Shown here: piece by piece, positions 2,713-63,073 of the stretch
How the letters are laid out: each line of letters starts with the position of its first letter
Position numbering within the stretch: the stretch's first letter is position 1
Assembly (NCBI GenBank): GCA_965117055.1
Contig: OZ220750.1
Coordinates: 4,358,011-4,422,010 of the forward strand
DNA length: 64,000 bases
Origin: Alphaproteobacteria bacterium
Lineage (GTDB): Bacteria > Pseudomonadota > Alphaproteobacteria > MPNO01
Direction of reading: 5' to 3'
Program-made: the position numbers and the translations under genes
The notes under the pieces: model-generated
Told to the model about the DNA's origin: nothing
The model's database searches: none
The model's input: the letters and a program-made list of their open reading frames with translations, nothing else

Positions 2713-3423
2713 TCACTCGTCGATGAGGACGTGGCCGGTCGGCGTCCACTTGAAATAGGGCACCGGACCGTCGTCCCCGTTTCCGGCGACCTCCCCGAAG
2801 GAAGCGCCGAAATGGGTCAGCACTCTGCGGGTGATCTGGGCGAGTTCGAGCTTCAGCGCTTGCTCGACGGTAAACCATTTCAGCCCCAGCAGCTCTCCCG
2901 ACTCCCTTACCTCCCCCGTCACATGGTCGTGGGCCAGGACAAAGAACCGGGCGTTGAACCTGACCGGGCGGATCGGCGGCGTAACCGCGCGCGCAATGTA
3001 GGAAAGGGCGCCCAGCGCCGGTGCGAACCCCGCCCCGAAAAACCCCTCCCAACCGCGCGGCGGCGGAAGGCGGGGCTCGGGATCCGGCCCGCCGACGATC
3101 AGCCCGGTCTCTTCGAAGGTCTCGCGGATCGCGGCCACCGCCATCGCGCGCGCCCGCGCGGGGCTGAGCCGCCGTTCCAGCCGCGCCGAAGTCCCGGGAG
3201 CGAGCGGGGTCGCGCAGCGCACTCTCGAGTCCCGCGCGTCGATCCGCCCGCCCGGGAAGACGAATCGGTTGGGCATGAACCGATGCCTGGCGTGCCGCTC
3301 GCCCATCAGCACCTCCAGCACGCCGGCATTCTCCCGGTAGACGATCAGCGTCGCCGCGTCGCGCGGCCGCGCGAGGGGGTCGCCGGGCGCGCGCACCGGC
3401 GGCGGCGAGGGAGAGGAATTCAT
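2713..3423 (-). CDS. NUDIX hydrolase
   Basis: Nudix-box-like GGRIDARD...AAIRETFEETGL; start MNSSPSPP at 3423 forms an ATGA overlap with the fni stop. Confidence 0.8.
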   Translation of the reverse strand: MNSSPSPPPVRAPGDPLARPRDAATLIVYRENAGVLEVLMGERHARHRFMPNRFVFPGGRIDARDSRVRCATPLAPGTSARLERRLSPARARAMAVAAIRETFEETGLIVGGPDPEPRLPPPRGWEGFFGAGFAPALGALSYIARAVTPPIRPVRFNARFFVLAHDHVTGEVRESGELLGLKWFTVEQALKLELAQITRRVLTHFGASFGEVAGNGDDGPVPYFKWTPTGHVLIDE

Positions 3424-4523
3424 TGGCGTAGCGCTCGGCGGGGTATCGAGACCGTCCCGGAAATCCCGGATGGGAGCGCGGGCACGGCCTCCCAATCCGA
3501 TGTGCGTCTCAGGACCGCGCGGCGAAGCGCCTCGATATCGGGCGCGCCGACGCAGAACGCGGCGATCCTGAGCTCTTCGATCATCCGTGCCATGCGTTTC
3601 GCCGCCGCCCCGGCCGTGTCGACCCCATGCTCCAGCATCGGTGCCGCCGTGCCGACCAGCGAGGCCCCGAGCCGGATCGCCTTGGCCGCGTCGACACCGT
3701 CCCGGATGCCGCCGCTCGCGAAGACCGGGCTGTCGGGGACCGCCCGTACGACGTCGATCAGGGCGGCGGCCGTCGGGATCCCCCATCCGGCGAAGCTGTG
3801 CGCCACGGCCCGGAGCTCGGGATCGGACTGGCGGTGGGCCTCGACCTCGCTCCAGCTGGTGCCCCCCGCCCCCGAGACATCGACCGCCGCGAGCCCGCAA
3901 TCCACCAGTCGGGCGGCAACGGCAGCCCCTATACCGTTGCCCACCTCCTTGCCGACGATCGGAACGTCGAGCGATGCGGCGAGCTCCTCGACCTTGCGGT
4001 AGAGCCCGGTCCAGTCGCGGTCGCCGCCCGCCTGCACGGCCTCCTGCAGGGGGTTGAAATGGAGGAACAACGCGTCCGCGCCGATCGTCTCGACCGCGCG
4101 CCGCGCCTCGTCCGCGCCGTAGCCGTGGTTGAGCTGAACGGCGCCCAGATTGGCGAAGAGCAGGATGTTGGGGGCAACGTCGCGCACCCCGTAGGAAGCG
4201 ACCAGTGCCGGCTGTTCGATCATCGCGCGCTGGGAGCCGACGCCCATCGCGATGCCGAGAGACTCGGCGGCGGCGGCGAGGTTGCGGTTGATGTCCCGCG
4301 CGCGTTCCGTCCCGCCCGTCATGCTGGCGATCAGCAGCGGCGCCTTCAGGCGACGCCCGAACAGCCGCGTCGAAAGATCGACCGAGCCGAGATCGAGCTC
4401 GGGGAGGGCGACGTGCTCGAAGAAGAACCGCTCGAAACCCGTCGACACCCCCTTGCCGGAGACATCCTCCCCAAGGACGGTGTCGATATGCTCCTTCTTG
4501 CGGGTTTCGATATCGCCGCTCAT
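3420..4523 (-). CDS. fni: Type 2 isopentenyl-diphosphate delta-isomerase (FMN-dependent)
   Basis: 367 aa; TIM-barrel IDI-2 signatures MTGGT, GKEVGNG, SGAGGTSW, ASGGIRDG. Confidence 0.9.
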   Translation of the reverse strand: MSGDIETRKKEHIDTVLGEDVSGKGVSTGFERFFFEHVALPELDLGSVDLSTRLFGRRLKAPLLIASMTGGTERARDINRNLAAAAESLGIAMGVGSQRAMIEQPALVASYGVRDVAPNILLFANLGAVQLNHGYGADEARRAVETIGADALFLHFNPLQEAVQAGGDRDWTGLYRKVEELAASLDVPIVGKEVGNGIGAAVAARLVDCGLAAVDVSGAGGTSWSEVEAHRQSDPELRAVAHSFAGWGIPTAAALIDVVRAVPDSPVFASGGIRDGVDAAKAIRLGASLVGTAAPMLEHGVDTAGAAAKRMARMIEELRIAAFCVGAPDIEALRRAVLRRTSDWEAVPALPSGISGTVSIPRRALRQ

Positions 4524-7218: not shown

Positions 7219-7758
7219 CTAACCCTGGGGCGCGGCGAGAACCGCGGCGTCGGGCCAGCCGAAGGCGAGCTCCTCGATGGCCGCGCCGCCAAGCGATCCC
7301 GCCCGGCGGCCGACAAGCCGTCCGCCCAGCGCCTCGTAGAAGTACCGCGCCGGGTTGCCAGCCAGCACCCAGACGATCAACGACGGCCCCAGCGCGGCGG
7401 CGAGGTCGAGCGCGAGGCCGGAAAACAGACGCCGCCCGACGCCTCCGTCCTGACGATCGCCGTCGACATAGAGCGTGTAGACCTCGCTGTCATAGGCGAA
7501 TCCGCGCGCGCGGGCGGGGCCGCCGCCTGCGAATCCGATGACCCTGCCGTTCTCGGCCTCCGCGACCAAGGTCTTTTCGCCGGGCGTGGGATTCCGGATC
7601 GTCCGCGCCCAGCGTTCGGCCCGGCCCTCGGTGCGGCGCATGCCGACCAGGAGCTTGTCTGGCAACAGCCCGGGATAGGCGTCCTGCCAGCCGGCGACGT
7701 AGATCCGCGCGATCGCCGCGGAATCGCCGGGACGGGCGGGTCTCAGCAGCACCGTCAC
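7219..7758 (-). CDS. GNAT family N-acetyltransferase
   Basis: 179 aa; acetyl-CoA motif-A-like DGGVGRRLFSGL; lies between guaA and guaB. Confidence 0.8.
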   Translation of the reverse strand: MTVLLRPARPGDSAAIARIYVAGWQDAYPGLLPDKLLVGMRRTEGRAERWARTIRNPTPGEKTLVAEAENGRVIGFAGGGPARARGFAYDSEVYTLYVDGDRQDGGVGRRLFSGLALDLAAALGPSLIVWVLAGNPARYFYEALGGRLVGRRAGSLGGAAIEELAFGWPDAAVLAAPQG

Positions 7759-7764
7759 CGCGCC

Positions 7765-10866
<3,102 letters not shown>

Positions 10867-13339: not shown

Positions 13340-13413
13340 TGGGGGATAGTTTAACGGTAGAACTCTCGGCTCTGACCCGAGCAGTCCTGGTTCGAATCCA
13401 GGTCCCCCAGCCA
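13340..13413 (+). tRNA. tRNA-Gln (anticodon CUG)
   Basis: Hand-folded cloverleaf: acceptor TGGGGGA/TCCCCCA, anticodon stem CTCGG/CCGAG, loop CTCTGAC, T-arm CCTGG-TTCGAAT-CCAGG, 3' GCCA. Confidence 0.9.
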
Positions 13414-25161: not shown

Positions 25162-25530
25162 GTGAACTGGACAGTAGAGTTGCACGTTGAGTTCGTGCCG
25201 GAATTTCGCGGTCTGCACCAAGACGTCCAGGATGAGATCTATGCCATCGCCCATCTGCTGGAGCATTTTGGACCGCAGCTCGGACGTCCTCGCGTGGACA
25301 CGTTGAACGGCTCGCACCATGTAAACATGAAAGAAATGCGCTTTGGCGCAGCCGGTGGAACATGGCGCCTCGCCTTCGCATTCGACCCCGAGCGCAAGGC
25401 CATACTGCTCGTTGCCGGAGACAAGTCGGGAAGCAGTTCCAGGCGGTTCTACCGGACGCTCATCCGCAAGGCCGACGAGCGCTTCGACCGTCACCTCGCC
25501 CGGCTTGCCGACAAAGGAGGATCGCGATGA
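25162..25530 (+). CDS. RelE/HigB-family toxin (Gp49/DUF891-like)
   Basis: 122 aa; ...WRLAFAFDPERKAILLVAGDKSGSSSRRFYRTLIRKADERF; ATGA overlap with the downstream HTH antitoxin. Confidence 0.75.
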   Translation: MNWTVELHVEFVPEFRGLHQDVQDEIYAIAHLLEHFGPQLGRPRVDTLNGSHHVNMKEMRFGAAGGTWRLAFAFDPERKAILLVAGDKSGSSSRRFYRTLIRKADERFDRHLARLADKGGSR

Positions 25531-25853
25531 ACGTGAGCCTGAAGGACATGATGGGGGACCTCGACCCCGCAAGGCGCCGCAAGATCGAGGATCGCGCCGC
25601 GGAGCTCATCGCCGAGGAGATGACTCTGCGGGAGTTGCGCAAGGCGCGGCAACTCACCCAGGTCAGCGTCGCGCGCGAGCTCGGCATCGGCCAGGACGGC
25701 GTCTCGCGGCTCGAACAGAGAAGCGACATTCTGCTGTCCACGCTGCGCAGGACGGTCGAGGCGATGGGGGGAAGCCTGTCGCTGATCGCCCGGTTTCCCG
25801 ACCGGCCACCGGTCGAGCTGTCGGGACTCGCCGAGCCGGATCCGCGCGACTGA
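25527..25853 (+). CDS. XRE-family HTH antitoxin (HigA-like)
   Basis: 108 aa; LRELRKARQLTQVSVARELGIGQDGVSRLEQRSD helix-turn-helix. Confidence 0.8.
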   Translation: MNVSLKDMMGDLDPARRRKIEDRAAELIAEEMTLRELRKARQLTQVSVARELGIGQDGVSRLEQRSDILLSTLRRTVEAMGGSLSLIARFPDRPPVELSGLAEPDPRD

Positions 25854-28282: not shown

Positions 28283-28564
28283 GTGACCGAGAAGTATTCG
28301 ATCGCGGACGCACGCCGCAACCTGCCACGGCTGATTCGCGAGGCAGAGAACGGCAAGACCGTGGAGTTGACCCGGCGCGGAGAACCGGTCGCTGTGCTGG
28401 TCGGCCACCGGCAGTTCAGGCGGTTCTCCGGGAACCGGCGGGGCTTCGCGGCAGCGTACCGCGAATTCCTCGTGACGACCGACCTCTCCGAACTCGATCT
28501 CGACCCGGACGATCTGTTCGAGGGCGTACGGGACAAGAGCCCGGGCCGCGACGTGTCTTTGTGA
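28283..28564 (+). CDS. Phd/YefM-family antitoxin
   Basis: GTG start after AAGGGA; VTEKYSIADARRNLPRLIREAENGKTVELTRRGEPVAVLV is the Phd/YefM N-terminal fold signature. Confidence 0.7.
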   Translation: MTEKYSIADARRNLPRLIREAENGKTVELTRRGEPVAVLVGHRQFRRFSGNRRGFAAAYREFLVTTDLSELDLDPDDLFEGVRDKSPGRDVSL

Positions 28565-28567
28565 GCC

Positions 28568-28708
28568 GTGCGGTATTTGCTGGATACGTTTGTCGCAGTA
28601 AGGACAACAGGGGATTTGACCGATTCGTCTTTCGGACGAAAACATGCGCAATCGCGCGCGGAGATTGAACCCCTTCGCGGGCGGGTATCTTATATCGCCG
28701 GATACTAA
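28568..28708 (+). pseudogene. vapC: Truncated PIN toxin remnant (46 codons)
   Basis: VRYLLDTFVAV... begins 4 nt after the antitoxin stop and terminates early where base composition drops (islet boundary). Confidence 0.45.
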
Positions 28709-28769
28709 TATTCCCGTGCGACAGTGCTGCGCACGACTGCGCTTCACTTGAAGCGGAGCCGCTGTCTGC

Positions 28770-29561
28770 ATGCTTACGCCCCTCGACAGCTCCGAGGCCG
28801 AAGCACATCGAAGTATGCGGTCCCGCCGGAAGGCAAATGATATGCTGGTCAAATACTGCAAACGCGAGCACAACATAGCGAGAGGTTTCCGCACCATCCG
28901 TCTAGGAACCCTAAGGTCCTATCATGACGACGATCCCAACTTTCTGCGCGCCGATGATCACGAGGGGCGCTACAGCGTTTCCAAGGAACACGGCGTTGCC
29001 CTTAGAGGAAGGGAGGCAGCGGAGTTCGCCAATGTCGTTGGGGGGAACGCCGAGATTGCCGAGGGCGCAAAGGCGGTGCGCCACGAGCACTTCCCCAACT
29101 GTTTCATCTATTGTCTGAGCAAAGCCCCTCCGAGCCTCACCTTGGCGCACAGCCTTGATCCAGACTATGATGACTGGTTTGAGATTGCCGACGAAGCGCG
29201 TTTCACATCAAGGTTGTTCCGATTGTTTACCGAACAGGTACGATCGACCGACCTTGAACTGCCCAGTGGCATATCGTCGTTTCCTGATTGGAAGGTTCTC
29301 ACTATCGGTGATCCAGTGGTTTATGGCGAGCGGCAGGAGGTCCTTAATTCCGAGAACTTCGACGAGGTGATGGAGCCAGTTCGAAACTCGCTTAAACGGA
29401 TTTTCCTCAAGCCGCCCACCCACCAAGACATCAAAGAATACCGAATAGCTTTTGTGGTCACGGACAGCAAAAGAAGAGTGATCAGCGTTAAGGCACAACC
29501 AAAGGACATCCAGCTATTGCCGTCAGACCCAATCCTCTCGACCGTCGGCATAGCAGCTTGA
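28770..29561 (+). CDS. Hypothetical protein (orphan; weak DUF2971-like pattern)
   Basis: Low-GC ORF; likely start 28842 (MLVKYCKREH); motifs NCFIYCLS and IFLKPPTHQDIKEYRIAFV loosely recall DUF2971; no firm assignment. Confidence 0.5.
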   Translation: MLTPLDSSEAEAHRSMRSRRKANDMLVKYCKREHNIARGFRTIRLGTLRSYHDDDPNFLRADDHEGRYSVSKEHGVALRGREAAEFANVVGGNAEIAEGAKAVRHEHFPNCFIYCLSKAPPSLTLAHSLDPDYDDWFEIADEARFTSRLFRLFTEQVRSTDLELPSGISSFPDWKVLTIGDPVVYGERQEVLNSENFDEVMEPVRNSLKRIFLKPPTHQDIKEYRIAFVVTDSKRRVISVKAQPKDIQLLPSDPILSTVGIAA

Positions 29562-30029
29562 TCATTGCCGGGACCGACTACATCGGGCCTACATTACAGA
29601 ACGCCACTATGCTTGAATCCGCGAGCAGCTCGCAACGTGCACTTCCGAGATGCGACGTCGCAACTTTGTCCACCCGTCATTAGCGAGGGATTTCGTTTCC
29701 TACCAGAAGGGACCCTACGGTCGATGCGTACCGGCTTGCCGACGGTGTCCGTCGTTTTCGTCAGGGTTGCTCCCTCCCGCGCCAGGGTACCGCATCGTCG
29801 CCAAGGCGCACGATGAACGCCTCCAGTCCGACCATCGCAGCCGCGCCCCACCGCCGAGCCGTGGCCATGTCCTTTCGCCAAGCGTATCCTCGCCATGTAA
29901 TCAGGCTCCTGGTCTGGTCGCCTATTGAATTGGCTCAACCCGCGACATCCACGGGTCCCCGCTTTCCCGGAATCACATCGACAGGCCTCGAGATCAGCCA
30001 CTTCGATCCGTTCTGGATCGCCTGCGATA

Positions 30030-31016
30030 TCACCTTGGCGCCCTTATGTTGTAGGAGCGGCTCTGTCCGCGATGGGCGATTATGGGTCCCCCGGCGAATC
30101 TTAACCACTTTTGATCTGGCGAGAACACGTCGATGGGCACTAAACAAACGGATGGAATATAGAGGTCCCCCGCAGGTCTCTCGAAGAGCTCGTTCTCAAT
30201 CAGTTGTGTGTAAAGGTACAAAGCGGTTTCGATCACTATCGCGTGGTTGTACTGGACGCCGGCGACCAGCAAGTTGCTCAGGATGTAGGCGTCACTGTCC
30301 GCAATCATCTTGTCTCTGACGTCAGGTTGCCCAGTGGGCTTTAGCAGACGGTCCATAGGTGGAGAGTGAGCACCTTCAGTGTTGACTGTGACCTCTAGAA
30401 TTTTTCGCAGTGAAATGCCCTGTCCGTTGAATATCACCAACTGCTGAGCGAGCCAATCGTCGCAATCAAGAGTTGGAGTTGAGGTCATATCAAATAGGTT
30501 CTTACTGTGAATCATCCATGGATCATCGTTTGTTGGTTCGTGGAGCCACTCCGCCATTCCGGCCAATGGCCAGTGAATGGTGAATACAAGCTGTTGCTTT
30601 GACGGTTTGGAAATATAGGTCTTGCCCGCGTCTGGCTCGTCTATCTTGGTCATTTGCATGGCGAAGAACAACTCTCTTGAGATGGTCAGCGTTCTGCGGT
30701 CTACTGATATCTTTCGAACTCTGCTGAATAGGAGGTTTGCAGCTTTGCAAATTTCATCGTTCAGTAGCCGTGTCCTTCGGTCACCTCTGTCGCCGAGCAC
30801 CAACTTTCTGATGAACAAAGAGCAGGCCCTAGCCAGAGCCTTCGTCGTCTCGCCCTGCGGGTAGGTCCCCTCCAAAGCGGCAAACCCCGCGATTACCACC
30901 TGGAGGTCGATCATCGTCTCCAGGATTCTCATGCGTTGATCTCTTGCCGGATTCGGGGCTATAGGCACACCTTCTGATGGAACAAATGGCAGCTCTTCCG
31001 GCTCCTTGCTACTCAT
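30030..31016 (-). CDS. Hypothetical protein (orphan)
   Basis: 328 aa from ATG 31016 (GGAGAA SD); low-GC; convergent with 28770..29561; no recognisable motif. Confidence 0.5.
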   Translation of the reverse strand: MSSKEPEELPFVPSEGVPIAPNPARDQRMRILETMIDLQVVIAGFAALEGTYPQGETTKALARACSLFIRKLVLGDRGDRRTRLLNDEICKAANLLFSRVRKISVDRRTLTISRELFFAMQMTKIDEPDAGKTYISKPSKQQLVFTIHWPLAGMAEWLHEPTNDDPWMIHSKNLFDMTSTPTLDCDDWLAQQLVIFNGQGISLRKILEVTVNTEGAHSPPMDRLLKPTGQPDVRDKMIADSDAYILSNLLVAGVQYNHAIVIETALYLYTQLIENELFERPAGDLYIPSVCLVPIDVFSPDQKWLRFAGGPIIAHRGQSRSYNIRAPR

Positions 31017-31356
31017 TCTATTCTCCGCTTTCTCTATTGGAGAGGACGCGGTAGCGCCATTGGAATCCCCTCGGTGCTGAGTCGAGTCCCCTCGATAACA
31101 GCTACGTCTTCGCCTCACCAAAGCGTCCCGAGACTCCTACAAGGCCACGCGTGCCTGGCATCAACTCAACTGGCGCAGGTATCAGCCACTCGGCACCCAC
31201 CTCGATCGCTCCGTGTATCGGGCAACCTCCTCGATGACTGAATCGTCGCTCCCATCACAACTTGATCACCGAAAAGCCGCCCGAGTCCATCACGTGATCG
31301 ATGTTTCTGCGCGCCTATCTGGGCATCCGCATGTAGAGCGCGTCCATGTCGGCAGC

Positions 31357-31655
31357 AAGGCTGTCCTCGATCCTCCGGACGGCGAGGTGCGCGTCGAGGT
31401 GCGCTTCGACCGGGAAACGGTCTGGCTGACCGGACAACAGATGGCGGAGTTGTTCGGGCGGGACCGCTCCGTCGTGATCCGGCACATACGAAACGCCTTC
31501 CGAGAAGGAGAACTGGAACCGGAGGTAACTCGTGCAAAATTTGCATTGGTTCGATCCGAGGGGGGACGGAAGGTCTCGCGCGAGGTGGACCACTACACTC
31601 GACGTGATCGTCTCCGTCGGCTACCGCGTCAAGTCCCTGCGCGGCACGCGGTATA
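31357..31655 (+). pseudogene. RhuM-family protein remnant (frameshifted, truncated)
   Basis: EVRVEVRFDRETVWLTGQQMAELFGRDRSVVIRHIRNAFREGEL, then after a frameshift LDVIVSVGYRVKSLRGT; matches remembered RhuM blocks. Confidence 0.6.
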
Positions 31656-31799
31656 GTCAACCTGTTGGCGGAGCCCGCCGCGTAACCCGCTTCGGCGAAT
31701 ACGGTGTCGAGGCCGTCGATCTCGCCGACCTCCCCTCCTTGCCATAACCCGGCGACGCTGTTTCCATTCCGGATCGCGCTGTCCCGAAGGGAGACCCCC

Positions 31800-60928: not shown

Positions 60929-61342
60929 ATGCCCGTGTTCCTGCTCGATACCTGCGCGGTGATCTGGATCGCGCGGGACGAACCGTTGCGCGAGCCCGCC
61001 GCGAGCGCGTTGGCGGAACTGTACGCCGAGGAGGGCCGGTTGGCGGTGTCCCCGATCACCGCGTGGGAGGTCGCGATGCTGGCGGCGAAGGGGCGCATGG
61101 CTCTGGCGCTCAGGCCCGAGATCTGGTTCGACAGGATTTGCGCGATACCCGGCGTCGCTCTCGCCGAGATGCCGCCGTCGGTGCTGATCGCGTCCTGCTC
61201 CCTGCCGGGCTCCCTGCACGCCGATCCCGCGGACCGCATCCTCGCGGCGACCGCGCGGGCGTTCGGATACACGCTGGTGACCCGCGACCGCCGCCTGCTC
61301 GACTACGGCGGCGAGGGGCATGTGCAGGTCATGGCGTGCTGA
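60929..61342 (+). CDS. vapC: PIN-domain toxin VapC
   Basis: 137 aa; MPVFLLDTCAVIW..., SPITAWEV, DPADRILAATA, LVTRD acidic quartet. Confidence 0.85.
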   Translation: MPVFLLDTCAVIWIARDEPLREPAASALAELYAEEGRLAVSPITAWEVAMLAAKGRMALALRPEIWFDRICAIPGVALAEMPPSVLIASCSLPGSLHADPADRILAATARAFGYTLVTRDRRLLDYGGEGHVQVMAC

Positions 61343-62036
61343 GGCCCGCCTCCCCGACCGGCTCGACGCAGGCAGGTTCGTCGTTGGCGGGCTTGTTGAC
61401 CAGGGTGCTCACCGGGTGGGCTGTCATCGCGTCTGCCGGGTAGGAGCCGAGCTCCACAGCCTCGCCGGCGAGCCACGGGTCGCGGGCGTCGGGCGGGAGG
61501 ATGACCGGCATCCGGTGGTGGACCCGGGCGACCAGCGCGTTGGCGGAGGTCGTCAGGATCGTGCAGGTCTCGATCCCGTCGCCGGGCGCGAGCTCCGCCA
61601 TCGATCCGGGCAGCGGGACGCCGGCGCGCACCGTCCAGCGCTCCCACAGCCCGGCGAAGGCGAACGCCCCGCCCCCGGCCGGCTCGAACAGCCAGGGCTG
61701 CCTGCCCTTCTCGCGGCGCGCCCACTCGTAGAACCCGTCGGCCGGGATCAGGCAGCGCCTTGCCCGCCAGGCGGCGCGGAAGGAGGGCTTCTCGCTCGCC
61801 GTCTCGGCGCGGGCGTTGATCGTCCGATAGCCGATTTTCGGGTCCTTCGCCCAGGCCGGGATCAGCCCCCAGCGCAGCATCGAGAGCCGGCGTTCCCCCT
61901 CTTCCGCGCGAACCGCCGCGACCTCCTGCCCCGGCGCCACGTTGTAGCGCGGCCGCAAATTCGCCGCCGGCCCGGCGAGGCCGAGGAGCTCCTGGATCTC
62001 CCGTAGGGAGAAGCGCTGGGTGAACCGCCCGCACAT
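61329..62036 (-). CDS. SOS-response-associated peptidase (SRAP/YedK)
   Basis: MCGRF N-terminal catalytic Cys2; NVAPGQ, RWGLIPAW, NARAET, PADGFYEW, HHRMPVIL. Confidence 0.9.
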   Translation of the reverse strand: MCGRFTQRFSLREIQELLGLAGPAANLRPRYNVAPGQEVAAVRAEEGERRLSMLRWGLIPAWAKDPKIGYRTINARAETASEKPSFRAAWRARRCLIPADGFYEWARREKGRQPWLFEPAGGGAFAFAGLWERWTVRAGVPLPGSMAELAPGDGIETCTILTTSANALVARVHHRMPVILPPDARDPWLAGEAVELGSYPADAMTAHPVSTLVNKPANDEPACVEPVGEAGLSTP

Positions 62037-62263
62037 GGGAGGAGATTAGGAGATTGGAGGAGCGAGCCGAAGCCCTTGGGGCGGCGTGGGCGGGAGGTCA
62101 AGGGGAAACGAGAAACCACTTGTCAAGTCTTTTATTGTTGATTCCCGAAGGGCCCCTCTCTAGATTTCCGAACTAGAATCCTGCGGGGCCGGGAAGGAGT
62201 TCTCGATCCGAGCCCTCGGCGCGTCAAGGGAAAGGAGGATACCGCCTGACGCGGTACAGAATC

Positions 62264-62452
62264 ATGGATATCGAACTTACGGCGCTGAAGCAACGCCTGT
62301 TCAGAGATTCCAAGGTGAGGAACATCAAGTTCTTCCCTGGACCCGATGGCGATGCCTCACCAGAGGATTTCGCTCGAGAGATCAACAAGTTTTTTGCCGA
62401 TGCAGAGCACTCTCCAAAGACCTTCGATCCAGCAGCGGACCTCGATGAATAG
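62264..62452 (+). CDS. Small hypothetical protein
   Basis: 62-aa ORF in low-GC DNA, AAAGGAGGA SD at about 12 nt, followed by a strong terminator. Confidence 0.4.
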   Translation: MDIELTALKQRLFRDSKVRNIKFFPGPDGDASPEDFAREINKFFADAEHSPKTFDPAADLDE

Positions 62453-62475
62453 GTTACCCTCGCCACCCCACACAA

Positions 62476-62505
62476 GGGCACCTGAAACACACAGGTGCCC
62501 TTTTT
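62476..62505 (+). terminator. Intrinsic terminator
   Basis: GGGCACCTG-aaacaca-CAGGTGCCC followed by TTTTT. Confidence 0.7.
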
Positions 62506-62506
62506 G

Positions 62507-63073
62507 ATGTCGTATCGTGAGCTCTATGACCGCGCGCAAGGCCAGCCGGGCAAAGTGTCGACCAGGTGGATACGGGATCAGGTCATCGACATTACCCCCG
62601 TAACCGCCGTCAAAGAGCAGTGGACAGGCCTGATCGATGAGACCCGGATCCGCGGCTTCTACGTCGAGGGGCCGCTCGGCCCACCCATCGTACTGGCTGA
62701 AAATGAAGTTCTCATAACCCTGGCCCGGACCTTGAACCGGGACTGGAGACGGATCGTTTACACCAAGGAGCTCATGCACGCGTTCGACACGGACGAAGAA
62801 AAAGCGGACACGCCGGAAAAGTTCGAACTCCAGATGGAAGACCTGGGCGACCCTTCCGCCGATATGTCGCCTCAGGCCAGAGCCGAGATAAAGGCGTTCT
62901 GGAGAGCTCTCGGGGTGCTCTGCAGTGCAGAGCTAAGGGAACAGTTCCGGTTGGCGGTTGAACGGCAAGAGATGAGTGCTGCTGTGGTTGCCGCTCGGTT
63001 ACGTATACCGGAACGGTATATCCGTCACCTTGTGCGCGACGATTTCCAAAACATTGTTGACGGATTGATGTAA
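62507..63073 (+). CDS. Hypothetical protein with degenerate ImmA/IrrE-like motif
   Basis: ATG 2 nt after the terminator U-tract (track start 62495 lies inside the hairpin); RRIVYTKELMHAFD resembles HExxH with first His replaced by Lys. Confidence 0.45.
   Translation: MSYRELYDRAQGQPGKVSTRWIRDQVIDITPVTAVKEQWTGLIDETRIRGFYVEGPLGPPIVLAENEVLITLARTLNRDWRRIVYTKELMHAFDTDEEKADTPEKFELQMEDLGDPSADMSPQARAEIKAFWRALGVLCSAELREQFRLAVERQEMSAAVVAARLRIPERYIRHLVRDDFQNIVDGLM

Follow-up and report, generated by a model that had tools for sequence, protein, structure and literature searches.

Between two core genes of an alphaproteobacterial genome, a short run of DNA of low G+C content carries two convergent open reading frames (ORFs), here called ORF1 and ORF2. 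Their location, between a broken toxin-antitoxin (TA) locus and the remnant of a RhuM-family gene, raises the question of whether they form a defense unit or came together in some other way. The region spans 28.25 to 31.7 kb of a 64,000-nucleotide stretch of contig OZ220750.1 (GCA_965117055.1), which is referred to below as the window. A sequence-based original prediction had described it as a single islet with a two-gene unit, of a kind typical of defense or antiphage cargo. Our comparisons indicated that the islet is instead composed of two independent DNA modules, at positions 28586 to 29663 and 29914 to 31217, each about 90% identical to a solo copy in another genome. With moderate confidence, we take the region to be a small, partly decayed TA/defense accessory hotspot in which horizontally acquired modules have truncated one another, ORF1 being a DUF2971- or ADP-ribosyltransferase (ART)-like effector and ORF2 an accessory protein of the antitoxin slot.

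To place the islet, its composition was determined in 300-nt windows. The G+C content fell abruptly from 0.70 to 0.74 in the Mo-hydroxylase gene (25.8 to 28.2 kb) to 0.477 to 0.64 between 28.65 and 31.2 kb (minimum, 0.477 at positions 30450 to 30749) and was 0.67 to 0.75 right of 31.7 kb; the lowest 1-kb bins of the entire window were those at 29 to 30 kb (0.567) and 30 to 31 kb (0.522). The predicted drop in G+C content was thereby confirmed, and the foreign composition and the placement at a TA locus beside a RhuM remnant were supported. DNA was then fetched around homologs of both genes, up to 10 kb on each side (loci numbered with the prefix L), and compared with the window by blastn. Window positions 28586 to 29663 were 89.7% identical to L001 (7745 to 8811), positions 28621 to 29663 were 89.6% identical to L004 (7780 to 8822), and positions 29914 to 31217 were 90.8% identical over 1,305 bp to L006 (3535 to 2231). 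Identity was lower to other loci, with 73% at the DNA level between the ORF1 cassette and L005 and L002/L003 and about 78.6% between the ORF2 coding sequence (CDS) and L007 and L009. Metagenomic contigs of 7.5 Mb, 215 kb, and 11.6 kb share the single-gene cassettes of about 90% identity and provide different genomic contexts; in the genomes of L001, L004, and L006, ORF1 and ORF2 are not neighbors. These separate solo copies ruled out one inherited two-gene islet, and the unit of the original prediction had to be divided into two cassettes (Table 1). The 250-bp spacer between them (29664 to 29913) matched none of the fetched loci past the ends of the cassettes, by either blastn or blastx.

Table 1. 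Features of the window between 28.25 and 31.7 kb
Feature	Position	Strand	Basis or remark
Phd/VapB-type antitoxin gene, intact, 93 aa, GTG start	28283-28564	+	phmmer versus PDB sequences
Putative vapC (PIN) 5' stub, ~6 codons (VRYLLD)	28568-28585	+	Translation; cassette homology begins at 28586
ORF1 cassette, ~1.08 kb	28586-29663	+	DNA homology; right ends aligned
Repeated leader element, ~190-200 bp, 5' end of ORF1 cassette	28586-28790	+	DNA homology between loci
ORF1 CDS, 239 aa	28842-29561	+	Homologs, dN/dS, superfamily profile
Spacer between cassettes	29664-29913		G+C ~0.60-0.64; no match to fetched loci
ORF2 cassette, ~1.3 kb	29914-31217	-	DNA homology; both ends aligned
Second, diverged copy of ~100-nt sequence, directly after ORF2 stop	29929-30021	-	tblastn, alignment
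ORF2 CDS, 328 aa	30030-31016	-	Homologs, AF2 model, dN/dS
3'-terminal remnant (~35 codons) of DUF2283-like/HTH_17 gene	31108-31212	-	tblastn, DNA alignments
RhuM-like (PADLOC PDC-S05/S23) remnant	31369-31650	+	~N-terminal 100 of ~330 residues; frameshift near 31585; 3'-truncated

Both cassettes carry intact, selected genes. The two convergent ORFs were present as predicted. Homolog lengths supported a start at 28842 for ORF1 (239 aa) and at 31016 for ORF2 (328 aa), as did GGAG-type ribosome-binding sites read from the sequence ahead of each. ORF1 had 32 close homologs, nearly all of about 238 aa and with many invariant residues, and ORF2 had 77 homologs. The ratio of nonsynonymous to synonymous substitutions (dN/dS, Nei-Gojobori) was 0.30 to 0.45 for ORF1 and 0.22 to 0.26 for ORF2 against their homologs. 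These values indicate that both genes are under purifying selection and that their proteins evolve fairly fast. Neither window protein had a match in Pfam, NCBIfam, PADLOC, or PHROGs.

The function of ORF1 was approached through its superfamily. A HMMER family profile searched against 1.84 billion representatives recovered 357 clusters at E ≤ 1e-3, and a further homolog search with a broad alignment added almost nothing. Most members are 230 to 280 aa long, and among those sampled a single Pfam domain was found, a C-terminal ankyrin fusion in one protein. When 104 members were scanned individually against Pfam and PADLOC, DUF2971 (PF11185) was the only recurrent Pfam family (11 of 104, all sub-threshold; best E = 0.022), and the only recurrent PADLOC models were three PDC-S31 models, which matched 8, 6, and 5 of the 104 (best E = 4e-5). 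The sub-threshold PF11185 matches suggest remote homology of the ORF1 superfamily and not membership, and the DUF2971-like pattern of the original prediction gains weak support from them. DUF2971 is a predicted ADP-ribosyltransferase family that is similar to DarT and AbiGi and has large inserts between its core strands (PMC12522546), and the DUF2971 protein Aristaios is a single-gene, abortive infection (Abi)-type antiphage system of lactococcal plasmids (PMC11381338). A literature search returned no paper naming PDC-S31.

K4, D38, E41, and Y161 were each present in 103 of the 104 superfamily sequences and K190, E199, and R201 in all of them, E199 being followed by [YF] and then R201. The motif [C/S]91-x-[S/T]93 was present in 88 sequences; position 91 was C in 93 and S in 11, and position 93 was S in 79 and T in 9. 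This invariant set looks enzyme-like. In an AlphaFold2 (AF2) model of poor quality, K4, the C/SxS motif, and E199 lay within predicted strands or at their margins (residues 2 to 4, 88 to 93, and 200 to 207, respectively), and K4, [C/S]91-x-[S/T]93, and E199, assigned by eye, would be compatible with an ART site of the R/K-SxS-E type. ORF1 is perhaps a remote DUF2971/PDC-S31 relative and, if so, would be an ART-like enzyme.

The ORF1 homologs lie in several kinds of neighborhood. In L001 the gene lies between an HEPN_AbiV gene and an SIR2_2 gene, in L004 it follows an NYN_YacP gene, and other homologs are accompanied by IS21 and other transposases or, on a circular 105-kb contig, by AbiEi/AbiEii, Mrr, and an insertion sequence (IS). 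Distant superfamily members were found in Hymenobacter (beside conjugative tra genes), Proteus, and Aeromonas (beside tmexCD-toprJ). A further distant member, which carries a hypothetical annotation, makes up the entire cargo of the E. coli plasmid pEC545_5 (NZ_CP018971.1; locus L067, 1755 to 2516), a 3,164-bp Rep/Rop plasmid, with a 10-nt overlap between the gene and the rep stop. It offers a tractable model for the ORF1 family.

ORF1 travels with part of its upstream DNA. The leader that opens the ORF1 cassette is rich in short GC hairpins and was found in six copies across the loci, of which the window holds one and none would be expected by chance: window 28586 to 28790, L001 3095 to 3272 and 7745 to 7960, L004 7780 to 7960, and L005 7779 to 7960 and 10236 to 10370. 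Two of these copies (L001 3095 to 3272 and L005 10236 to 10370) precede unrelated genes, and the proteins encoded downstream of them are unrelated. The left ends of the cassette homology vary between copies (28586 versus 28620/28621). The leader could be a mobile promoter, a leader sequence, or a recombination site. Treating it as a structured RNA was rejected after no Rfam match was obtained, its fold was no stabler than those of shuffled sequences (z = -1.1), and little covariation was seen in six copies. It was also rejected as an IS end: in L005 an IS parts one leader copy from its gene, and this IS owns perfect 17-bp inverted repeats and sits downstream of the leader. No canonical R''/R' boxes of an integron attC site (RYYYAAC ... 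GTTRRRY) were recognized in the leader or the cassette ends by eye, the only inspection made, with no attC or IntI model run.

The ORF2 family may represent an accessory domain that is reused. An AF2 model built from 41 sequences was confident (pLDDT, 83.8; pTM, 0.82; 5 of 5 models in agreement) except for a 25-residue low-confidence segment at the N terminus, and Foldseek searches of this model against PDB and BFVD gave no match (best E = 0.3; TM ≤ 0.2). The family was found in 52 species genomes of GTDB, all of them metagenome-assembled genomes (MAGs), from more than 10 phyla; the taxa include Dehalococcoidia and other Chloroflexota, Terriglobia, Vicinamibacterales, Latescibacterota, Gemmatimonadota, Alpha- and Gammaproteobacteria, Acidimicrobiia, Nitrospirales, Binatia, and Rhodothermales. 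A scan of JGI metagenomes yielded seven loci, none of them telling about partners, with the accession prefixes MKWU, LXNI, and LXNJ, which are those of Mediterranean sponge metagenomes (PMC5099237, PMC5649159).

Neighbors of ORF2 were judged by clustering of recurrent neighbors together with spot annotation, and none was conserved across the whole family. A HigA-type helix-turn-helix (HTH) domain is fused to the ORF2 domain in eight loci, and a gene for a HigB-like toxin lies immediately upstream in five of these (L065, L021, L027, L032, and L055), with an IS between HigB and the fusion in a sixth. Elsewhere, hsdR is directly upstream (L012 and L054), HicB, XRE, and Phd-PIN genes precede ORF2 (L008), GmrSD adjoins (L021), or ORF2 follows a CBASS operon in an island with type I restriction-modification (R-M) and ImmA/IrrE genes on a circular 56-kb contig (L066). 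In L007, ORF2 is cargo of an integrative and conjugative element (ICE), beside a relaxase gene, an HTH_17 gene, a ribbon-helix-helix (RHH) gene, and a resolvase gene. The commonest recurrent neighbors were transposases, rve integrases, and tyrosine and serine recombinases. The window ORF2 itself had no HTH_3 match, the HTH being confined to longer relatives, and no HigB neighbor; upstream of it there is only a 35-codon HTH_17-like remnant. We also observed, in four loci (L020, 8173 to 9639; L037, 7291 to 8676, minus strand; L045; and L047), a protein family of about 480 aa that recurs no more than about 1.5 kb from an ORF2 homolog; its C terminus has an R-x4-H motif (RSGIVH) that looks HEPN-like by eye, and it had no PDB sequence match.

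The remnant upstream of ORF2 in the window is what is left of a gene found in other loci. A DUF2283-like/HTH_17 gene, for which the HTH_17 assignment is weak, precedes ORF2 in L006, L007, and L009, and the window keeps only its 35-codon tail: the product of L007 7479 to 7904 matched positions 31108 to 31212 with 57% identity over 35 aa (tblastn, E = 2e-9). The same search matched a second copy directly after the ORF2 stop (29929 to 30021; 58% identity over 31 aa; E = 1e-7), and both copies aligned with those of L006 and L007. With one copy on either side, ORF2 sits between imperfect direct repeats of about 100 nt that correspond to the 3' end of the HTH_17-like gene (in L006, about 2140 to 2290 and 3400 to 3560). 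Site-specific insertion into the terminal part of that gene could have left them as an att-like duplication.

The flanks of the two cassettes are decayed. On the left, the product of the gene at 28283 to 28564 matched P1 Phd (3hry; E = 3.7e-4) and VapB46 (6jqy; E = 1.5e-3) in a phmmer search of PDB sequences and was 44% identical over 34 aa to the Phd protein of L008. A 46-codon ORF (28568 to 28708) follows it, and the original prediction had placed the truncation of vapC at codon 46. Only the first six codons or so can be vapC, because homology to the ORF1-cassette copies elsewhere begins at 28586; from there on, the DNA is about 90% identical to the sequence upstream of the ORF1 homologs in L001 and L004, where no Phd gene lies upstream. 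The position of the stub after Phd and its LLDT motif suggest that it derives from a PIN toxin gene, and no other vapC or PIN fragment was found in the islet. A VapBC (Phd-PIN) module thus appears to have been disrupted, with its antitoxin present and the full PIN-domain toxin gone, and the intact, genuinely Phd/VapB-type gene is now an orphan antitoxin. On the right, the frameshifted RhuM remnant of the original prediction was recovered with the PADLOC profiles. Residues 53 to 131 of the ORF at 31213 to 31656 matched only positions 10 to 94, approximately, of the 327- to 346-position PDC-S05/S23 profiles (E = 1e-25), and the gene is frameshifted and truncated at its 3' end, since the next few RhuM-like residues sit in a second frame (31532 to 31747). 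A full-length match to the profile of about 330 residues was not reached, which leaves a remnant with a broken frame. RhuM-family and VapBC modules are typical residents of defense and TA islands.

The linkage of the two genes was assessed across the fetched loci with a broad ORF1-superfamily hidden Markov model (HMM). Of 57 ORF2 loci, 4 had an ORF1-like gene at a distance of less than 4 kb from ORF2. In two of them it is directly upstream and on the same strand, with a gap of 176 bp in L036 (E = 2.9e-25) and 29 bp in L037 (E = 8.8e-13); in L046 it is downstream on the same strand at a distance of 3.7 kb (E = 2e-10); and in the window the two genes are convergent with a gap of about 470 bp. 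These pairs come from different phyla and are mutually divergent, with 24 to 33% identity among the ORF1-like proteins and 35 to 44% among the ORF2 proteins. The other 53 ORF2 loci had no ORF1-like gene in the flanks fetched (up to 10 kb on each side), and none of about 10 other ORF1-family contexts held ORF2. The ORF1 superfamily makes up no more than 357 of the 1.84e9 clusters, so that much less than one co-occurrence would be expected by chance in about 1.1 Mb of flanks (an estimate and not a formal test). The co-occurrence is far above this estimate, and therefore the association is real; it could reflect function or a very specific shared niche. ORF1 and ORF2 are not obligate partners, and solo members predominate in both families. 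An ORF1-ORF2 unit conserved in co-occurrence and orientation was not found, and the minority association is nonetheless well above chance. Set against the refuting case named in the original prediction, the homologs are scattered and for the most part do not co-occur, yet they lie near defense and mobile genes and a minority co-occur.

In L036 (7936 to 9780, from a Latescibacterota MAG), the ORF1-like protein is 614 aa long; its ORF1-like domain is followed by an extended charged linker and then by a domain at the C terminus that had no Pfam match. The ORF2 homolog beside it is truncated at its 3' end by an IS4-type transposase gene. In L037, an ORF at 7462 to 9033 was considered as a third operon gene and rejected; it had no homologs and an arginine-rich, shadow-like sequence and is probably no gene.

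Taken together, these observations show the following arrangement. A Phd-VapC pair lost vapC beyond its first six codons or so when, or after, the leader and ORF1 cassette of about 1.08 kb arrived. A second cassette of about 1.3 kb, that of ORF2 with its flanking direct repeats of about 100 nt, is inverted beside it, the usual upstream HTH_17-type gene having been lost, and the RhuM-like gene has been cut down to a frameshifted N-terminal stub. ORF1 may be an ART-like, single-gene effector of the abortive-infection or toxin type, like Aristaios, with K4, [C/S]91-x-[S/T]93, and E199 as the candidate R/K-SxS-E triad. ORF2 may be a nontoxic accessory protein in the antitoxin slot, acting as a neutralizer or as a sensor or regulator attached to a DNA-binding partner; it is found repeatedly as a fusion with HigA downstream of HigB, as the next gene behind ORF1-like genes, and following an HTH_17 gene. 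A solo ORF2 without a DNA-binding partner is tolerated in the window. The two window proteins may act together in trans, though they were not inherited as a unit. A defense or TA role of both genes is supported by context only: the antiphage cargo of the original prediction agrees with the placement of homologs amid TA, defense, and mobile genes, and no PADLOC model covers the window proteins.

Several results weigh against this reading. The window ORF1 had no match to any Pfam family, PF11185 included, at E ≤ 10 or to any PADLOC family, PDC-S31 included, at E ≤ 1. Its AF2 model was poor (pLDDT, 67.5; pTM, 0.60; one of five models folded), and a Foldseek search of that model against PDB gave a best E of 0.3 and no ART match, the model being too poor to exclude an ART fold; profile searches of PDB sequences with ORF1 returned nothing. 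The ORF1 homologs in L002/L003 sit amid housekeeping genes. PADLOC matched nothing in the ORF2 domain and, in the fused proteins, recognized the HTH parts alone. The domain itself suggests neither an enzymatic nor a binding function, and in about 75% of ORF2 loci no toxin is recognizable upstream. Finally, the window proteins had no match in PLSDB and neither family had a match in IMG/VR. A plasmid or phage origin was rejected on these blanks, and PLSDB contained only distant ORF1-superfamily members.

The alternative closest to the original prediction is that ORF1 and ORF2 form a genuine two-gene toxin-antidote or defense system, analogous to DarT-DarG or AbiGi-AbiGii, in which an ART-like ORF1 toxin would be controlled by ORF2 as a dedicated neutralizer (for example, a de-modifying hydrolase or a binding antitoxin) and the window would hold a working pair. 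The co-directional order in L036 and L037, with L046 and the window as looser cases, the recurrence of the pair in four divergent forms from different phyla where chance adjacency is very unlikely, and the antitoxin position of the ORF2 domain after HigB elsewhere all speak for such a system. The window genes, however, are convergent and not operonic and sit on separate cassettes, 53 of 57 ORF2 loci and about 10 other ORF1 contexts lack the partner, and solo ORF1 genes, including the sole cargo of the 3.2-kb plasmid, argue that no antidote is needed. We consider this alternative somewhat unlikely. A more far-reaching reading is speculative to a similar extent. ORF1-like, ART-type proteins and the ORF2 domain might represent a previously undescribed toxin-antidote/defense partnership, in which ORF2 would be a promiscuous neutralizer or phage sensor of new fold, recruited repeatedly by different toxins (HigB through the HigA fusion, ORF1-like ARTs, and possibly others) and spread horizontally over more than 10 phyla, largely in sponge-associated bacteria.

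It is unlikely, in our judgment, that the two genes are baggage of mobile elements with no part in phage defense. In that case, ORF2 would serve regulators encoded by the elements (HTH_17, XRE) as their sensor or effector domain in the control of excision, transfer, or addiction, with ORF1 as an unrelated enzyme and the TA and defense neighbors explained by shared integration hotspots alone. This explanation draws on the pairing or fusion of ORF2 with DNA-binding domains, its presence in ICE cargo beside relaxase, HTH_17, RHH, and resolvase genes, the prevalence of IS, integrase, and resolvase genes among recurrent neighbors, the direct repeats that flank ORF2, and the absence of a PADLOC match for either window protein. 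It does not account well for the repeated placement of ORF2 directly after toxin genes (HigB and ORF1-like) and within CBASS, R-M, and GmrSD defense islands, for the matches of the ORF1 superfamily to the candidate defense models PDC-S31, or for the blanks in IMG/VR (both families) and PLSDB (window proteins). The idea that old insertions left junk DNA in which the ORFs are no more than decaying or spurious frames is refuted for practical purposes. The surroundings are clearly decayed (the vapC stub, the RhuM stub, and the truncated HTH_17 gene), whereas both ORFs are full length relative to dozens of homologs and have dN/dS values of 0.22 to 0.45, the residues that resemble an active site are conserved, and ORF2 yields a confident structure model.

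Other parts of the window may have a similar accessory character. Just upstream of the Mo-hydroxylase gene, a dip in G+C content (0.55 to 0.60) marks a second small two-gene module (25162 to 25853), with a 122-aa ORF (25162 to 25530) followed by a gene for a 109-aa XRE-type HTH protein (25524 to 25853). The HTH gene is 75% identical at the DNA level to L021 11063 to 11392, which lies directly after HigB-HigA::ORF2 in that locus. The module looks like another toxin/XRE-antitoxin pair, in which the putative toxin had no PDB match. A full-length PIN-domain gene was found at about 60938 to 61306 (tblastn with the L008 PIN protein, E = 3e-10), adjoined by an SRAP-like gene (61356 to 62037) with 72% DNA identity to L004 4459 to 5143, and a further dip in G+C content (0.577) occurs at 62 to 63 kb (62001 to 63000); positions 60938 to 63000 are possibly another accessory patch. 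The sole tRNA gene of the window, a tRNA-Gln (CTG) gene at 13340 to 13413, lies 15 kb from the islet and does not stand out as an integration site for it.

The locus shows the turnover of small TA/defense hotspots, in which newcomers truncate their predecessors and single-gene cassettes are shared across contexts. If our reading is correct, ORF1 extends the DUF2971/Aristaios-type, single-gene, ART-like defense effectors into 357 clusters without current profile annotation, a sequence space to which the cargo gene on the small plasmid pEC545_5 also belongs, and ORF2 would join the few modules that different toxins share as partners, as a domain of unmatched structure. Sponge microbiomes are a community type already known to be rich in defense genes. 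Testable pairs are offered by ORF1-like followed by ORF2 (L036/L037) and by HigB followed by HigA::ORF2 (L065).

Several known systems provide a measure for these proposals. The flanks of the islet hold degraded members of the RhuM-family (PDC-S05/PDC-S23) and VapBC groups, which are context and not part of the two orphan genes. Compared with Aristaios and other DUF2971 (PF11185) proteins, the window ORF1 differs in reaching no PF11185 score, the best superfamily value (E = 0.022) lying below the gathering threshold; the superfamily has a single invariant Glu (E199) in place of ExE, and an ART fold could not be confirmed. PDC-S31 resembles the ORF1 superfamily in that 8 of 104 members match it and that it is likewise a single-gene candidate, whereas the window ORF1 and its close family are unmatched and the PDC systems are themselves only candidates. 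The order of an ORF1-like gene and then an ORF2 partner of about 330 aa in L036 and L037 resembles that of darT-darG and abiGi-abiGii in DarTG and AbiG (AbiGi/AbiGii). ORF2 differs from the second components of both in having no macrodomain or AbiGii signature, the pairing occurs in only a minority of loci, and the window genes are convergent and were acquired separately. Canonical HigA is about 100 aa long and needs no extra domain. The window ORF2 differs from HigBA type II TA systems in having neither an HTH nor a HigB neighbor, and its fused relatives bear a 330-aa extension; the likeness to HigBA lies in those relatives, where, in at least five loci, a HigB-like gene is followed directly by one for a HigA-type HTH protein whose C-terminal part is the ORF2 domain.

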